A stretch of DNA of 64,000 nucleotides, taken from IMG/VR virus record IMGVR_UViG_3300025674_006584; one strand, written 5' to 3'. Position numbers and translations under genes: made by a program. Positions 2,689-63,800 of the stretch are shown here, in pieces (position 1 is the first letter of the stretch; each line of letters opens with the position of its first letter). The DNA comes from an uncultured virus (IMG/VR IMGVR_UViG_3300025674_006584). Taxonomy: Duplodnaviria > Heunggongvirae > Uroviricota > Caudoviricetes. Below the pieces are notes generated by a model, which was not told the DNA's origin, did no database searches, and saw only the letters and a program-made list of their open reading frames with translations.

Positions 2689-5394
2689 ATGGCACAAATA
2701 TCAGGAAATACATGTAATATTATTACGATAGCACCTATGGAAGTTGAGTGTTATGTAACTAATGCCTCTAACGCAGATACACAGAATGGTTCAATACAAT
2801 TATATATTAATGGTGGTACTGCACCTTATACAGTAGTTTGGAACAATGGTACACAAGGAACCTATATAGGAGGACTATCACCGGGAAATTATACGGCAAC
2901 AGTGACCGACTATCAAGGGGACTACGTTATTAGTAAAACTTGTACCGTCCAATTACAAAGTACCGCGGATACAGGTAGGGATGACCCATATTTGAATAAG
3001 TTTTTTAAATGTGACGATTCTTATAATCCTGACATATATGTTTTTTATGATGGTGTTAGTCTAAATACTAATACATTATCATTAACATCTGAATCAATAC
3101 GTTCCTCATACCAAGGATTAGTTAATAATGGTTTTGGTGGTCAATTATATGAAGGAGTTATAGGTTCTAAAAATAATAATGGTGAAAACTGGTTATGGTG
3201 GGCGACATATCCTTATTTGGGGTCACTGACAGGTGGTACATTATCGGATAGTACAGTAGTAAGTTCATTTGGTATAAACGGAGAATCGGTAGACAACTCC
3301 GTTTATGATTCAAGATGGTGTCAATCAAATGATTCAGGAAAATGTGTACCTAATAATCCATCTTTTAATTTTAGTACTACAACACCTGAAGGACTCACAT
3401 CAGACATATACAAAAGGATAAATAATGGATATCAACTAACAGGTACTTATGGTATAAATGATAGTCGAACTAATGGTGTACCATTTACAGTTACATCATC
3501 TATGGATGGTAATAGTAGTACAGTATACGGTGATTTTATAGGAGGTCAAATAGAGTATAAGGTAATAATAATAACAAATAATGCAGATGATGAAGTCGGT
3601 ATGTATCACGGTAAAGTACCTGTTTATGATAACGTACCTTACAAAGATTTTTTAATTTTTAATCCTTTTGAATTATATGGAGATTATTGGAATGTACAAA
3701 CAGAAAAAGAATACACTAATAGGTTTGAATATGAATACGAATCTTTCTTAAAGGTATGGGAAGATATAAAAGACCAAAACGGGGAATTTGATGGATTAGT
3801 TTATCCAAATATCACTAATAGTGGTTCAAGTATACCATATTTACAACATTTAGTTGCATCAATAGAGGGGGACACTATAAGTAATACTGAATTTCAGACT
3901 AAATATGACAGTGATATACAAAGTGTTGGACCTTTAAATTTAAATTTAATTAATTTAGAAACACAAAACGTATATAAAGAATTAACAGGTACAACGACAT
4001 ATAGTAATTTAGCTTTAGAATATAAAAATGGTGCAGGACTTAAGAACTTTGGATGGCAAACAAACCCTACTATAGTATTTGATAATCAAACAAACATATC
4101 AAATAAATTTACTAAATACTTAAATAATGACGCATTAACAAGTACGGAATTATATACAAATACTCTGAATGGTATTATTGAAAATAAAGTATATAAACTT
4201 AGTGGAATAACGGGATGTTATTCATATGATAGTACCGTTCTTAATACAGGTCAAACATATCAGGTTACAGTTGTAGATAGCGTTTATAATGAATGTATAA
4301 ACTGCGACCCATCAACACCAAATCCCGTCATACAACCAAAATTATGTCTAACGTCTAATGATGTACAGTATACGTTTACACAGACAGGTGTTGATGTTAA
4401 TGGTAATTTTACATGGGAAAATTCAGGTAATTCTATAACTATACAATATAGTATATCTAATGACAGATGGGAAGTAACTCCATGGTCAAACATAGGTGAA
4501 GGACTAATGATACAAAACTCAAACAGTATTATACCTATAGGTACTTGGGTTAACATTGGTGTGTCGAGACCTGATAATTGGACTATAATAGAAGGTGAAT
4601 GTTTGGGACTACCTATAACTGTTAACGCAACAACATATAATGAAGTATGTGAGGGTGATAATAATGGTTCTGTAATTCTAGAGGCATCTGGAGGTCAACC
4701 TCCATACTCTTATAGAATACCTAATGTTGCACCATATCCCGCATATTCATCATCAGGATTATTTTTAAACTTAATACCTGATAGTTATGTTGGTGAAGTT
4801 TCAGGTACTTCGGGTAGTGCTACAGTCGCATTTACAATTAATGAAGGTAGTCCAGAAACAGAGTATATTATATCTACAACATATGAACAACAATCTTTAT
4901 TTGGAGGAGCACTTAGTTGGTCCTACGATGTTCAGGTAACACCTACTTTACCCACTAATATCACTTTAAATTTTGATATTGAATTAACACATCAAAGAAT
5001 AGAAAGAGATTCAGGTATCGCTAGCTTTAGTCAATCACACCAAATAGTTAAAAATGGTAATTTAAATTTATCGTATGATACAACTTCAGACATTGTTAAT
5101 ACAACTAATGTATGTAGTGACACTGTCGTGGAAACTAACACTACATTTAAACAAAACGCTAATTCAGTTAATATGTCAGGTGGTGACACTATTGTTGGTT
5201 CAGTAACACAATCTGTTATAATAGATGGTGGTGGTGCAGCTTGCAGTCCTGAAGATTGTCAGATGTTAGGTAAATATATTACATCTTTACAAATAAAGAA
5301 CATTTCAGTAGTAGGTGGTAGTAGTTGTGATAGTGCAATATATCCAACACCGTTATCTAATATCACAGTAAGTGAACAAGATTGTTCTTCTTAA
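2689..5394 (+). CDS. Large SprB-repeat-containing putative virion protein
   Basis: NGSIQLYINGGTAPYTVVWNNG...GLSPGNYTATVTD and a second NGSVILEASGGQPPYSY repeat; TATTTAT 5 nt upstream of the ATG. Confidence 0.6.
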   Translation: MAQISGNTCNIITIAPMEVECYVTNASNADTQNGSIQLYINGGTAPYTVVWNNGTQGTYIGGLSPGNYTATVTDYQGDYVISKTCTVQLQSTADTGRDDPYLNKFFKCDDSYNPDIYVFYDGVSLNTNTLSLTSESIRSSYQGLVNNGFGGQLYEGVIGSKNNNGENWLWWATYPYLGSLTGGTLSDSTVVSSFGINGESVDNSVYDSRWCQSNDSGKCVPNNPSFNFSTTTPEGLTSDIYKRINNGYQLTGTYGINDSRTNGVPFTVTSSMDGNSSTVYGDFIGGQIEYKVIIITNNADDEVGMYHGKVPVYDNVPYKDFLIFNPFELYGDYWNVQTEKEYTNRFEYEYESFLKVWEDIKDQNGEFDGLVYPNITNSGSSIPYLQHLVASIEGDTISNTEFQTKYDSDIQSVGPLNLNLINLETQNVYKELTGTTTYSNLALEYKNGAGLKNFGWQTNPTIVFDNQTNISNKFTKYLNNDALTSTELYTNTLNGIIENKVYKLSGITGCYSYDSTVLNTGQTYQVTVVDSVYNECINCDPSTPNPVIQPKLCLTSNDVQYTFTQTGVDVNGNFTWENSGNSITIQYSISNDRWEVTPWSNIGEGLMIQNSNSIIPIGTWVNIGVSRPDNWTIIEGECLGLPITVNATTYNEVCEGDNNGSVILEASGGQPPYSYRIPNVAPYPAYSSSGLFLNLIPDSYVGEVSGTSGSATVAFTINEGSPETEYIISTTYEQQSLFGGALSWSYDVQVTPTLPTNITLNFDIELTHQRIERDSGIASFSQSHQIVKNGNLNLSYDTTSDIVNTTNVCSDTVVETNTTFKQNANSVNMSGGDTIVGSVTQSVIIDGGGAACSPEDCQMLGKYITSLQIKNISVVGGSSCDSAIYPTPLSNITVSEQDCSS

Positions 5395-20281: not shown

Positions 20282-20731
20282 ATGAAATTATTTTCTACCT
20301 TAAAAGAAATATTATTAGAGTTTGTACATCCAGATGCGGATGTTATATACTCTACAACTATGAATGAAAAATCATTTATCTTTTACGATAATCCGCATTT
20401 ATATGAAAGAAGGGCTAAATATAATAGAGTTAGGTTAACAGATAAAGAACTTTTATTAGATATGATAAAATTATCAGTACCTAAATTATATCACAAATAT
20501 TATGATTCAGGTAAAAAATTTAGAGAAATAGAATCGGATGACCCAAGGAAATCAAGATTTGCGATTAGAAGAAAATTAGGAAAAAGAGAACCTGTTGCAA
20601 TTATACAGATAGATGAATATATAAAAGATAAAGGTTTCATTTTTGTTGTTATTACATTCTTTGATGAGACAGGGGAAAACTTAAATGATATGACTAATAA
20701 ATTAAGAACTAGATTTATTTTGGATATTTAA
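20282..20731 (+). CDS. Hypothetical protein with ILLE leader
   Basis: 149-aa ORF, MKLFSTLKEILLE; TATTTAT at 20271-20277. Confidence 0.6.
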   Translation: MKLFSTLKEILLEFVHPDADVIYSTTMNEKSFIFYDNPHLYERRAKYNRVRLTDKELLLDMIKLSVPKLYHKYYDSGKKFREIESDDPRKSRFAIRRKLGKREPVAIIQIDEYIKDKGFIFVVITFFDETGENLNDMTNKLRTRFILDI

Positions 20732-20750
20732 AAAGTTTGTACTATATTTG
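20719..20750 (+). promoter_or_regulatory. Bacteroidota-type promoter (TTTG-N20-TATATTTG)
   Basis: TTTG 20719-20722; TATATTTG 20743-20750. Confidence 0.7.
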
Positions 20751-20754
20751 TATT

Positions 20755-20858
20755 GTCAGTGTAGTCTGACTGGTCGCCAGGAGTTTAAATCGTTTGTACT
20801 GGGACGAGAATAAAGAAGACGATTAACCTAAAGAGACCTTTACGGGTCTCTTTTTTTT
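20755..20858 (+). ncRNA. Candidate small structured RNA or cis-regulatory leader (hairpin + H-type pseudoknot + terminator)
   Basis: GC-richer island between a promoter and a terminator; complementary segments visible. Confidence 0.5.
20830..20858 (+). terminator. Intrinsic terminator
   Basis: aaagagacc/ggtctcttt stem followed by T8. Confidence 0.85.
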
Positions 20859-20873
20859 ACTTATAATTTATAT

Positions 20874-21317
20874 ATGAATTGGACTGAATACTTTTTGAAT
20901 ATCGCGGAGACGGTAAAACTTAAATCTAAAGATAAACGTACACAGATAGGTGCCGTAATAGTTGGACAGGACAATGAGATTGTATCTACAGGGTACAACT
21001 CATTTCCTCGTGGTATTGACGATGAGGTGGATGAAAGACAAGTAAGACCTGAAAAGTATTATTGGATAGTCCATGCAGAAATGAATGCGATACTAAACGC
21101 GGCTCGTATTGGTGTGAGTACTAAGGACTGTACTATGTATCTAACATGTGGTGTTCCGTGTTCGGATTGTTGTAGGGGAATTATTAACGCGGGTATCAAA
21201 AAGATATATGTTAAAAAGGAAGACACCACTCGTAATCGCGAACATTGGGATGCCCATGCTGCTCGGTCACGAGTGATGTTTGAAGAAAGTGGTGTTGAAG
21301 TTATTTTTTATAAATAA
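20874..21317 (+). CDS. dCMP deaminase
   Basis: STGYN, HAEMNAI, PCSDC. Confidence 0.9.
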   Translation: MNWTEYFLNIAETVKLKSKDKRTQIGAVIVGQDNEIVSTGYNSFPRGIDDEVDERQVRPEKYYWIVHAEMNAILNAARIGVSTKDCTMYLTCGVPCSDCCRGIINAGIKKIYVKKEDTTRNREHWDAHAARSRVMFEESGVEVIFYK

Positions 21318-21938: not shown

Positions 21939-22061
21939 ATGAACGAAGAAATGATTAAAATGTTGATTAAAATGTCAGACGCGGATGGTGTATACACGAT
22001 GATGCGAGACATGGGTGAAGATGACATGGCTGATTGGATTGAAGAAAATTATTTTGATTAA
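21939..22061 (+). CDS. 40-aa acidic hypothetical protein (not in ORF track)
   Basis: MNEEMIKMLIKMSDADGVYTMMRDMGEDDMADWIEENYFD; TATATTTG 4 nt upstream. Confidence 0.55.
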   Translation: MNEEMIKMLIKMSDADGVYTMMRDMGEDDMADWIEENYFD

Positions 22062-26824: not shown

Positions 26825-27415
26825 ATGAAGGAACATAATGAACCCTACCAATATCTTTTGTTTATCTTCGGGGACTTCAAAGGAAAAGATAAAATCATAG
26901 AATTAATTGCATTACAATTATCATCATTCACAGACAAAAACAGTTATGTAAAATATAATTATGGAGACTATGGAATTGTAATGAATTTTCAATCACAATA
27001 TAGTTTTTATAATCTTAGGGACCATGTTCATATAGTTTTGGAAAAGGTAGCACCACAGTACTTTCTTTTTGAAAGACCAAAACATATGTATGCCTATATG
27101 CCACCTGAACTTAAATTAAATCTTTTTGATTTAAATGAGGAAAATATAAATATTGAGCAAAAAGATGTTAATTTTAAGGATATGATGAATATTATGGACA
27201 ACTTTTTGATTAATCTTACGTCTACATTATCACCTGAGAATATGTTATCAGAAGATGATATGGAACGTATGTTTGAAAATATTATGAATGAGGTAGATAG
27301 AAAAGAAGAAGTAAGACCTACAATTGATGATATCCTTGATAAAATTAGAGAAAAAGGTATCGAATCACTAAGTAACTCAGAAAAACAAATATTAGATGAA
27401 TACTCAAAAACTTAA
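26825..27415 (+). CDS. Hypothetical protein
   Basis: C-terminal IDDILDKIREKGIESLS..EK..L motif. Confidence 0.6.
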   Translation: MKEHNEPYQYLLFIFGDFKGKDKIIELIALQLSSFTDKNSYVKYNYGDYGIVMNFQSQYSFYNLRDHVHIVLEKVAPQYFLFERPKHMYAYMPPELKLNLFDLNEENINIEQKDVNFKDMMNIMDNFLINLTSTLSPENMLSEDDMERMFENIMNEVDRKEEVRPTIDDILDKIREKGIESLSNSEKQILDEYSKT

Positions 27416-28211
27416 TTTAATGTCTAACAGTAACCCTATCAATCAAGATGAAATTCAGATGTATCTGAAAGACATCCGTAAAATCAAAGTTATGACTCCT
27501 GAACGTGAAAAGGAGTTAGCAATAATAATATCTTCAGAAGATTGTACAGAACAACAAAAAGAGGAAGTATACCAAGAACTTCTTGAAGGTAACCTACGTT
27601 TTGTAATTACAGTTGCAAAACAATATCAAAATCAAGGATTAGACCTTAGTGATTTGATTGCTGAAGGTAACTACGGTCTTATGAAGGCTATTAAGAATTT
27701 TGATTGGGGTCGGGACTTACGTTTTATTTCATATGCTGTTTGGTGGATTAAACAATCAATCCTTCAGTCATTGAATGAGAACTCTCGTACAATTAGACTT
27801 CCAGTAAACGTAGTTCAAGACCTTCATAAAGCTAAAAAGGAGGCTCAAAAAGGTAACGGTGAGATTGATAGTAAATTTGCTATGTTACCAAAAACTACAG
27901 GTTTAGATAATCACATTAACGATGAAGGAGATACTCTTATCGACTTGATTGAAAATGAAAACTCAGCCAGTCCTGACGCATCATTTAACGACGGTAGTGC
28001 CCTTAAAATGAAGTTACAATGTATTATGAATACACTTGACGAAAGAGAAAAAGTTATCATAACAGACTACTATGGTATGACTGACACACCAAAGACTTTG
28101 GAGGAAATTGGTAACGATTTTGGTCTAACTAAAGAACGTGTAAGACAAATTAAAGAAAAGGCTTTACGTAAACTACGCAACGAAAGTAGTACACTTTTTG
28201 ATTACTTATGA
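27396..28211 (+). CDS. Sigma-70 family (RpoD/SigA-like) RNA polymerase sigma factor; start possibly 27420
   Basis: NLRFVITVAKQYQNQG, DLIAEGN.GL, FISYAVWWIKQ, TLEEIG..FGLTKERVRQI. Confidence 0.95.
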   Translation: MNTQKLNLMSNSNPINQDEIQMYLKDIRKIKVMTPEREKELAIIISSEDCTEQQKEEVYQELLEGNLRFVITVAKQYQNQGLDLSDLIAEGNYGLMKAIKNFDWGRDLRFISYAVWWIKQSILQSLNENSRTIRLPVNVVQDLHKAKKEAQKGNGEIDSKFAMLPKTTGLDNHINDEGDTLIDLIENENSASPDASFNDGSALKMKLQCIMNTLDEREKVIITDYYGMTDTPKTLEEIGNDFGLTKERVRQIKEKALRKLRNESSTLFDYL

Positions 28212-62765: not shown

Positions 62766-62868
62766 TATATTTGTAAAACTTTTGACAGATAAGGGTATAT
62801 TTATATACTACAATCAGAAAAAAAGTTTAAAAAAAATTTGACAGATTGAAAAATATGTTTTAAATTTG
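62766..62868 (+). promoter_or_regulatory. Stacked promoters upstream of the large ncRNA
   Basis: TATATTTG 62766-62773; TATTTAT 62798-62804; TTTG(ACA) 62837-62843 with TAAATTTG 62861-62868 (20-nt spacer). Confidence 0.7.
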
Positions 62869-62872
62869 TCAA

Positions 62873-63715
62873 ACGTTCTTTGAAAATATTAATGACGAAC
62901 CTTCACTGAAAGAGTTTCCTAAAAAGATTAACCCCCTTTTTTCATTCAAAAACAGTGAACAAGTAGTTATCGGTGGTTTAGCATCGTTAGATAACCCTGG
63001 CAACAGGACTAAAGGGACAGAATGGGATTTAGCAATCCTTGGAAGTTCGCAGTCGTATGGCTGACAACTAAACAAAGTATCTACGACCCGTACCTCAAGG
63101 GCAACTGCTGAGGGGTTAGGGTTCATCTGAATGAGTGGACATTCGGGTGTGAGATGGAGACATCAACAGGAGAAGATACAGGTGACGGTTCGACACTCAC
63201 TGCTATGGGTTGTAGAGCTGGGTACCAGTCTGAGGGGTTACCTCAGGGACGAGTGGAAACTCGGAACCTACCGTAGTCCTGACTGACCGTTAACTTGCAG
63301 GTTAACAGAGAGGTGTGAAGCATTCTGTACTCCAAAGGTATGGACCTTCTCCCGAAGCACATCTTTCATAAATCCACATTTGCTAATTTTAATCTAAATT
63401 AAAACAAGCGAAAGTCTTCGGGCGTTGATGACGAAAGGTGTCTAACACTTCGGACCTTAGTCAACGAAGTCATCCCTTGAACCGCAAGTTCTCGGATGTC
63501 GATAATGAAACAACTCGTGGGTTGGCCGACCCTTAGTGAGACCGCAAGTCTTGAGAGATTGAAGTAGTTGTCGAGTAGTTATCAACGATACGAGTGGTAG
63601 CCGTTAGTTACCGACACTGACTCGATACTCCTGTCAATGGAGTGGATACGTGGGGAATTATCTAACTATAATCCCACAAAAGACGAGTTGTCAAACGTGT
63701 AATCTCAGCGTCCTT
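62873..63715 (+). ncRNA. Large structured non-coding RNA, GOLLD-like
   Basis: ~840 nt without a credible ORF, GC-richer than its flanks, many hairpins, long-range pairings, AT-rich central linker; the 3' motif series matches my recollection of GOLLD (not searched). Confidence 0.75.
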
Positions 63716-63748: not shown

Positions 63749-63778
63749 AACCTCAGCTGTAGTGGCTGAGGTTTTTTT
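63749..63778 (+). terminator. Intrinsic terminator of the ncRNA
   Basis: aacctcagct-gtagt-ggctgaggtt followed by a T-run. Confidence 0.85.
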
Positions 63779-63800
63779 CTTTTATAGATATTTATAACTA

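Follow-up and report, generated by a model that had tools for sequence, protein, structure and literature searches.

The window analysed here, the whole 64,000-nt stretch of DNA from an uncultured virus of the Caudoviricetes (IMGVR_UViG_3300025674_006584), has a GC content of 31.7%, and its genes, which include a SbcC/Rad50-like gene and a phage sigma factor gene (27396-28211), lie mostly on one strand. Contigs of related viruses reach up to 270-330 kb, and we infer that the window is part of a jumbo phage with a Bacteroidota host. Promoters of the form TTTG...TAnnTTTG occur seven times in the window against 3.5 expected, a number reached in 6 of 100 shuffles. The locus of interest begins with ORF149 (20282..20731; + strand, as are all features below unless stated otherwise), an accessory gene of no known family, and ends with the gene for a single-domain phage dCMP deaminase of 147 aa (20874..21317; PF00383, E 1.8e-24; phrog_174, E 3.4e-45). 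Between them lies what is very probably a stand-alone gene for a structured RNA of about 100 nt, running from 20755 to about 20858.

The RNA is preceded by a promoter of the Bacteroidetes sigma-A type. Its -33 box, TTTG (20719..20722), is embedded in the last codons of ORF149 and is paired with a -7 box in 13 of the 30 copies of the RNA that we collected. The -7 box itself, TATATTTG (20743..20750), conforms to TAnnTTTG and is exact, in the same register, in 18 of the 30. Among the 12 copies without the exact box, four lie downstream of a second module, B (described below), seven have a variant box and one is the copy at locus L230. Since the -7 element spans -12 to -5 according to PMC9723704, from which its consensus was also taken, the predicted +1 is G20755, the first base of the RNA's 5' hairpin. 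An earlier, sequence-only reading of this DNA had proposed that the RNA has its own promoter, and the fixed register of this box in those copies supports that.

The predicted transcript starts with P1, a 5' hairpin of 5 bp with a variable loop (20755..20770; 20755-20759/20766-20770), which is 99% paired among the copies and shows two-sided changes at three of its five pairs. It is followed by an H-type pseudoknot. Stem 1, P2, has 7 bp (20773..20805; 20773-20780/20799-20805) with G20776 bulged, and is 100% paired, with two-sided changes at two of seven pairs. P2 encloses the conserved loop L1 (20781-20787), the 5' strand of P3 and L2 (20796-20798). Stem 2, P3, has 8 bp including one G-U pair (20788..20824; 20788-20795/20817-20824), and the A-rich L3 (20806-20816) begins with an invariant GAG. 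An intrinsic terminator hairpin with a U-tract (20830..20858; pairing probability 1.00 in the full transcript) ends 15 nt ahead of the deaminase ATG at 20874. The positions first given for P1, P2, the loop 20788-20793 with its partner 20819-20824, the terminator and an alternative hairpin all match the sequence. The complementarity of that loop to the tail is present as described, but the helix it belongs to is P3, with 8 rather than 6 bp.

Taken singly, the sequence is no more stable than expected by chance (z = -1.51 for 111 nt, -0.37 for 76 nt); P2 was absent from the minimum free energy structure of both folds, and support for the structure comes from homologues instead. We found 30 copies, 19 of them distinct, in 23 sources, several of which are near-duplicates (L250 repeats L003), and the copies make up about five sequence classes. 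A pattern scan of metagenomes returned 40 stretches, of which 18 were positive (56-95 bits) with a scoring model built from seven copies and 22 were dropped as chance. An exact-pattern scan of 185,579 genomes gave ten matches, none positive with the model, and blastn against annotated phages found no homologue, only matches of promoter or terminator length. Diverged members can be missed because all the scans were exact-pattern scans. Looser searches returned at least 118 stretches in viral contigs, almost all chance or coding; L123, L147 and L161, similar by eye, were rejected by the model. The last relaxed pattern gave six stretches, four of them already known and two rejected.

Across 21 distinct rows, 99.6% of the 252 cells of P1 and P2 were paired, and 5 of their 12 pairs showed two-sided changes. 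None of 500 shuffles scored as high and slid controls stayed at or below 44%; the shuffle counts are not probabilities, because the alignment was fitted to P1 and P2 and the sequences are related. P3 shows two-sided changes at five of eight pairs; its pairing in fixed columns is 78.6%, because about one third of the 21 rows, belonging to two classes, pair in a shifted register. Scored sequence by sequence, a helix of 7-12 bp forms in 18 of 18 loop/tail types. Cognate loop-tail duplexes average -8.4 kcal/mol, whereas the mean of 202 non-cognate pairs is -4.0 kcal/mol. Of the 18 loop types, 15 beat tail shuffles at p ≤ 0.05 and three do not; for 5 of the 18, some non-cognate tail pairs better than the cognate one. 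With only about five sequence classes, drawn from a single phage clade, few independent events underlie the covariation. The pairing first proposed from one sequence is nevertheless conserved in relatives, with two-sided changes in all three helices.

The bases at the junctions are kept: UGG between P1 and P2, RAGY at the start of L1, GUA in L2 (GUU once) and GAG after P2. The bulged base of P2 may be G, A or C. The alignment thus portrays stems that appear to vary freely around conserved junction bases. The alternative hairpin, CTGG/CCAG at 20770-20780, which had been described as competing with P2, can form in 30 of 30 copies, but it shows no compensatory change, being kept only via wobbles against the invariant CTGG; it may be a folding intermediate. 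A conserved peptide was also considered and rejected. There is no ATG in any of the six frames over 20736-20873, and the P2 loop, 14-17 nt long, varies by single bases. The region thus encodes no conserved peptide, in line with its first description as an RNA.

The sequence-only reading had left two options, a free-standing small RNA or a riboswitch-like leader of the deaminase gene. A leader would fit the terminator so close to the ATG, the alternative hairpin available to every copy and the position of the deaminase: of the 23 sources, 18 have it within two genes of the RNA, 5 of them directly downstream and 13 with one gene in between, and it was not seen in the remaining 5. However, the gene next to the RNA is not conserved among these sources: it may be the deaminase, a 39-aa ORF, a T5orf172 nuclease gene or another RNA unit, or there may be none. 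The terminator forms with a probability of at least 0.95 in 22 of 22 units, 22-215 nt past the module and with several stem sequences; it is separate from the pseudoknot and never overlaps it, and no antiterminator or expression platform was found in these units, in each case by nested folding only. Moreover, the terminator is usually followed by a new box, either TAnnTTTG or, 5-6 nt ahead of the ATG, TAnnnT. The TAnnnT box of the window (20862..20867), 6 nt before the deaminase ATG and with like boxes before the next start codon in eight other loci, is probably the deaminase gene's own promoter, and a message starting from it would be leaderless or nearly so. A full TAnnTTTG precedes the next start codon in L222, L238 and L243. 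The boxes at L222 1539, L238 1808, L243 ~1616 and L224 207 end 3-5 nt before likely start codons, which suggests that this phage group may use leaderless messages.

Deaminase loci viewed from the other side give the same picture. Among 80 viral loci with a related deaminase, the RNA is directly upstream in none and one gene away, within 3 kb, in four; the other 76 have no module of this kind within 3 kb. The closest relatives, L001 and L002, whose deaminases are 97% and 96% identical, are without the RNA, and since the Rad50 stop there overlaps the deaminase start, ORF149 and the RNA are an insertion relative to them. The 270-kb, 88%-complete record behind L001 contains neither the RNA of the window (best E 0.2) nor module B. 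Riboswitches lie consistently 5' of functionally related genes, an association that we did not find, and at L230 no co-directional gene follows the RNA. Based on these comparisons, the RNA does not appear to be a dCMP deaminase leader, and we regard a riboswitch or attenuator at this site as highly improbable. Elsewhere in the window, an acidic 40-aa ORF (21939-22061) has a homologue, 51-53% identical, that sits between the RNA and the deaminase in a second group of relatives.

The neighbourhood also recalls AvcI, a non-coding RNA whose gene immediately precedes that of a deoxycytidylate deaminase, an arrangement shared by the window and four more of the 23 sources. AvcI binds and inhibits its deaminase, as PMC10511110 describes, and by analogy the present RNA could inhibit either the phage's own dCMP deaminase or a host defence enzyme, AvcD. 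In two different neighbourhoods, the RNA and the deaminase do lie no more than two genes apart. Yet in the same paper AvcI has ~280 nt and AvcD ~60 kDa, with no predicted terminator separating the two, whereas here a 100-nt RNA, with a strong terminator, precedes a 147-aa enzyme. Nor is linkage to a deaminase obligate, as the 97%-identical enzyme on the record free of both modules illustrates. We therefore consider an AvcI-like inhibitor very unlikely.

Comparison of the loci indicates that the window RNA is the minimal, one-module form (module A) of a modular family. Module B, absent from the window, is ~97 nt long and combines the small pseudoknot B1, a hairpin and another pseudoknot, B2, whose loop itself holds a hairpin. 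Loop and tail of B1 form 5-6 bp in each of nine types, and their changes match; in B2 the pairing covers 5-6 bp in four of the five types captured by script, the fifth being a mis-captured tail, and the B2 variants of L215 and L238 were read by eye only. The modules occur as A (the window, L243), A-B (L003, L004, L005, L222, L232, L233, L241, L249), A-B2 (L006, L216), A-B1-C2 (the second unit in L003, L214, L221, L233, L241 and L250; also L231 and L230), B-A (L211, L217, L224), B-B-A (L215) and A-B-B (L238). Some genomes carry two separately terminated units. A search with a module-B pattern returned 15 stretches, namely four known contigs and 11 chance matches. The loci lie among DNA methylase and T5orf172 genes and have accessory status.

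One copy of the RNA is solitary. The L230 RNA matches the second L003 unit in 119 of 121 bases, but its surroundings (45% GC, neighbours resembling YagK/YfjJ and GNAT proteins, no ORF149 or ORF172) are not phage-like, and L230 is presumably bacterial mobile DNA. Exchange of the RNA between phages and bacterial mobile DNA would predict such a near-identical copy. At L230 752-777, this copy has an extended P1 hairpin, and its promoter box is of a variant form. The range of the family is so far narrow, covering one phage clade and this one other contig. With its fixed-register promoter box, constitutive terminator, varying neighbours, shuffled modules and one solitary copy, the RNA accords well with the first of the two original options, a stand-alone small RNA.

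No family could be assigned to the RNA at the outset, and Rfam 15 likewise gives no match for it. In the window, the only RNA recognized was GOLLD; local matches of the present RNA to Rfam models (13.5-27 bits) were all far below the cut-offs, and the homologue loci L082-L084 gave nothing at E ≤ 1. STAXI, wcaG, SAM-II/V, ykkC-III, ribozymes and MCS4 all stayed below the gathering threshold; the MCS4 match (E 3.4) is carried mainly by the promoter, the terminator and the variable P1. The RNA has what we take to be a resemblance to glmS, HDV-like, pistol and hairpin ribozymes and to SAM-II/V and guanidine-III RNAs, likenesses that found no backing in Rfam. The nearest orphan motifs in kind are STAXI (RF01728), a pseudoknot found as two or three repeats near genes for DNA handling and antirestriction on mobile DNA, and wcaG (RF01761), whose RNAs occur in phages; neither has a known function according to PMC2864571. 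Unlike these, the present family has no covariance-model match, a different host group, shuffled modules of unlike kinds and a terminator for each unit. We found no description of the motif in the literature, and it may sit among the ~10,000 viral candidates of Fremin et al. 2023 (PMC10690425), a source that gave no match in the part covered.

The anatomy of the RNA bears on two further readings. Conserved junction bases around variable stems, as seen here, are typical of ligand pockets in H-type riboswitches, and the modules could be small-molecule aptamers, either working as a free RNA sponge for a metabolite or signal or surviving as relics of riboswitch aptamers that were once captured. 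The module B 5' hairpin of L215 (869-929 and 973-1016), with its loop and linker, also resembles the 5' half of the fluoride riboswitch model (RF01734). The L215 scores, however, are 15 bits (E 0.07-0.11) and 13.2 bits against a gathering cut-off of 34, the 3' conserved segment is missing and the L004 form of B gives no match. Moreover, unlike in the riboswitch, in 9 of 9 types the partner of the B loop is a 3' segment close by, and B is not a leader. The likeness is possibly that of a distant relative, or chance. Module A has no riboswitch-model match at E ≤ 10 and no expression platform was found, and we hold the aptamer explanation to be unlikely. In the second reading, one of the modules, A or B, would be a self-cleaving ribozyme not yet described, or a processing element that cuts the array. 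Many invariant unpaired bases, a compact pseudoknot and the existence of tandem arrays would suit it; no ribozyme family in Rfam matches, though, and it is hard to see what a module standing alone between its own promoter and its own terminator would process, making this quite unlikely.

The gene upstream of the RNA deserves closer attention. ORF149 or a second protein, ORF172, stands directly before the RNA in 17 of the 20 sources with a visible upstream gene. ORF149 has no Pfam, PHROG or PADLOC match and ORF172 is likewise without a family. The AF2 model of ORF149 (pLDDT 78) weakly resembles the RelE/BECR-type RNase fold: VIA aligned it to HigB1 with Z 4.5 (rmsd 3.9, 83 aligned), among many RelE-like rows, and the ORF172 model reached Z 4.6 (rmsd 5.7, 83 aligned). 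The matches of both include RelE, HigB, BrnT and CdiA-CT RNases, all below the tool's trust level of Z 8. The fold search also gave a Foldseek match to HigBA2 (E 0.01) and PBECR2/3 rows in the Atlas at 0.81, which serve as a lead only. Within its family, ORF149 keeps His39, Arg44 and Arg90 (P0029 numbering).

On these models, the RNA could be the antitoxin of ORF149 or ORF172 as predicted RelE/BECR-like RNases, in a toxin-RNA pair of reversed order in which the early RNA would restrain a phage nuclease. Besides the upstream linkage, the fold likenesses and the retained residues, this reading is helped by L001 and L002, where ORF149 and the RNA are missing together from the deaminase site, and by the two ORF172 loci found in the viral collection, both of which are RNA loci (patterns from ORF149's own sequence found no loci). 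Against it, the RNA occurs without either protein upstream in 3 of 20 sources (L217, L222, L230), and the ORF149-family genes of L280-L282 have no module A nearby or on their contigs, which are 19-49% complete. Nearly the same RNA lies behind ORF149 in L005 and behind ORF172 in L004, two proteins that align only at the N terminus (37% probability). The coupling of the proteins with the RNA thus appears loose and, with fold matches under the trust level, we regard the antitoxin explanation as doubtful, although it is the leading alternative to our own.

Several observations concern ORF149 and the wider window. In L280-L282, the ORF149-family gene (2501-2962) directly follows the terminator of a long non-coding stretch that by eye resembles the 3' end of GOLLD, and two hairpins and a terminator lie past the next gene (~3290-3370). 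A similar basic-hydrophobic N-terminal stretch, with Glu at about residue 9-13, is encoded at 20282-20731, L215 323-841, 26514-26783 (- strand) and 63801. It recalls phage capsid-targeting leaders, and if it is one, ORF149 and ORF172 would be virion-delivered RNase-like proteins. The GOLLD RNA of the window (63308-63711, 301 bits; also in G001 and G002) is flanked by a promoter-like box ending at 62868 and a terminator-like hairpin near 63750-63780, and the ~440 nt of GC-richer non-coding sequence ahead of it is probably its 5' half. A TATTTAT motif lies at most 23 nt upstream of 15 of the 106 ORFs of the window (before 2689, 5429, 20282, 26783 (- strand), 29756, 30976, 52023, 59931, 63801 and others); it precedes ORF149 and, in L217, the B-A RNA, and is possibly a late promoter for the phage sigma factor encoded in the window.

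Type III antitoxins had been named as a possible model for the RNA, and the comparison is instructive. ToxI, CptI, TenpI and the phage pseudo-ToxI are likewise built of H-type pseudoknots, with a promoter ahead of them and a Rho-independent terminator behind, according to PMC3475682, PMC5086642, PMC12283969, PMC13682666 and PMC3401426. Among them TenpI, whose repeats are non-identical, resembles module A in its conserved stem 1, covarying stem 2 and A-rich stretch. Module A thus has, as predicted from covariation, the type III trait of an H-type pseudoknot with single-stranded A-rich tails. Type III antitoxins, however, form arrays of ~2-5 repeats of 31-62 nt (repeat length from PMC3401426), whereas the window has a single unit, and in its relatives B units of 95-97 nt stand in tandem or A occurs as two separate units. 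The units are longer and of unlike kinds, no Rfam antitoxin matches them and no ToxN, CptN or TenpN gene follows the terminator. Since there is neither a repeat array of known size nor a toxin past the terminator, the RNA does not belong to type III.

Our best explanation, which we put forward tentatively and by analogy, is that the RNA is a trans-acting protein decoy working like a mimic of a type III antitoxin. It would probably be made early in infection, because its promoter is of the host type, and its transcription would end at the constitutive terminator. The transcript would fold into the 5' hairpin and the H-type pseudoknot, and the folded modules would act in trans and stoichiometrically as shape decoys that block a protein. 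The most likely target would be a host anti-phage RNA-binding or RNase effector, much as pseudo-ToxI blocks ToxN. We favour this decoy for four reasons: the host-type promoter, which would give early expression; the free stems and fixed junctions, which would imply recognition of shape rather than antisense pairing; the doubling and mixing of modules, which would fit a titrating inhibitor better than a switch; and the location among methylase and nuclease genes, which would fit counter-defence. There is a precedent for expansion in phage PhiTE, which expanded pseudo-ToxI repeats and once captured the host toxI, as reported in PMC3475682. Against the decoy stand the modules of 70-97 nt, which exceed known type III repeats, and the upstream linkage of ORF149 and ORF172, which favours the antitoxin explanation. 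The exact-pattern scan of 185,579 genomes found no host system with a matching antitoxin. In three RNA runs (X1-X3, contigs only) nothing covered 20731-20817, a gap that in contigs proves nothing; run X1 held two 151-base pieces of ORF149.

In summary, the anatomy of the RNA, the covariation of its helices, its independence from the downstream gene and the shuffling of its modules are observations, and by all comparative indications an uncatalogued modular family of phage non-coding RNAs is real; its function we infer. At the least, the locus adds two new RNA motifs, A and B. RNA-based counter-defence in phages is known from few cases, such as pseudo-ToxI, and these short RNAs of 70-100 nt are directly testable. 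Identifying a protein that they bind would bring to light either an unknown RNA-controlled system of Bacteroidota or a novel toxin-RNA pair. More speculatively, these jumbo phages may keep a mix-and-match toolkit of pseudoknots, each module inhibiting a different host immune effector or an RNase of the phage's own, although the odds are against this broader proposal. If it is true, the swapping and doubling of modules would retune counter-defence, as an all-RNA equivalent of anti-defence gene islands, and would point to undescribed RNA-controlled defence systems in Bacteroidota and to modules traded with bacterial mobile DNA.
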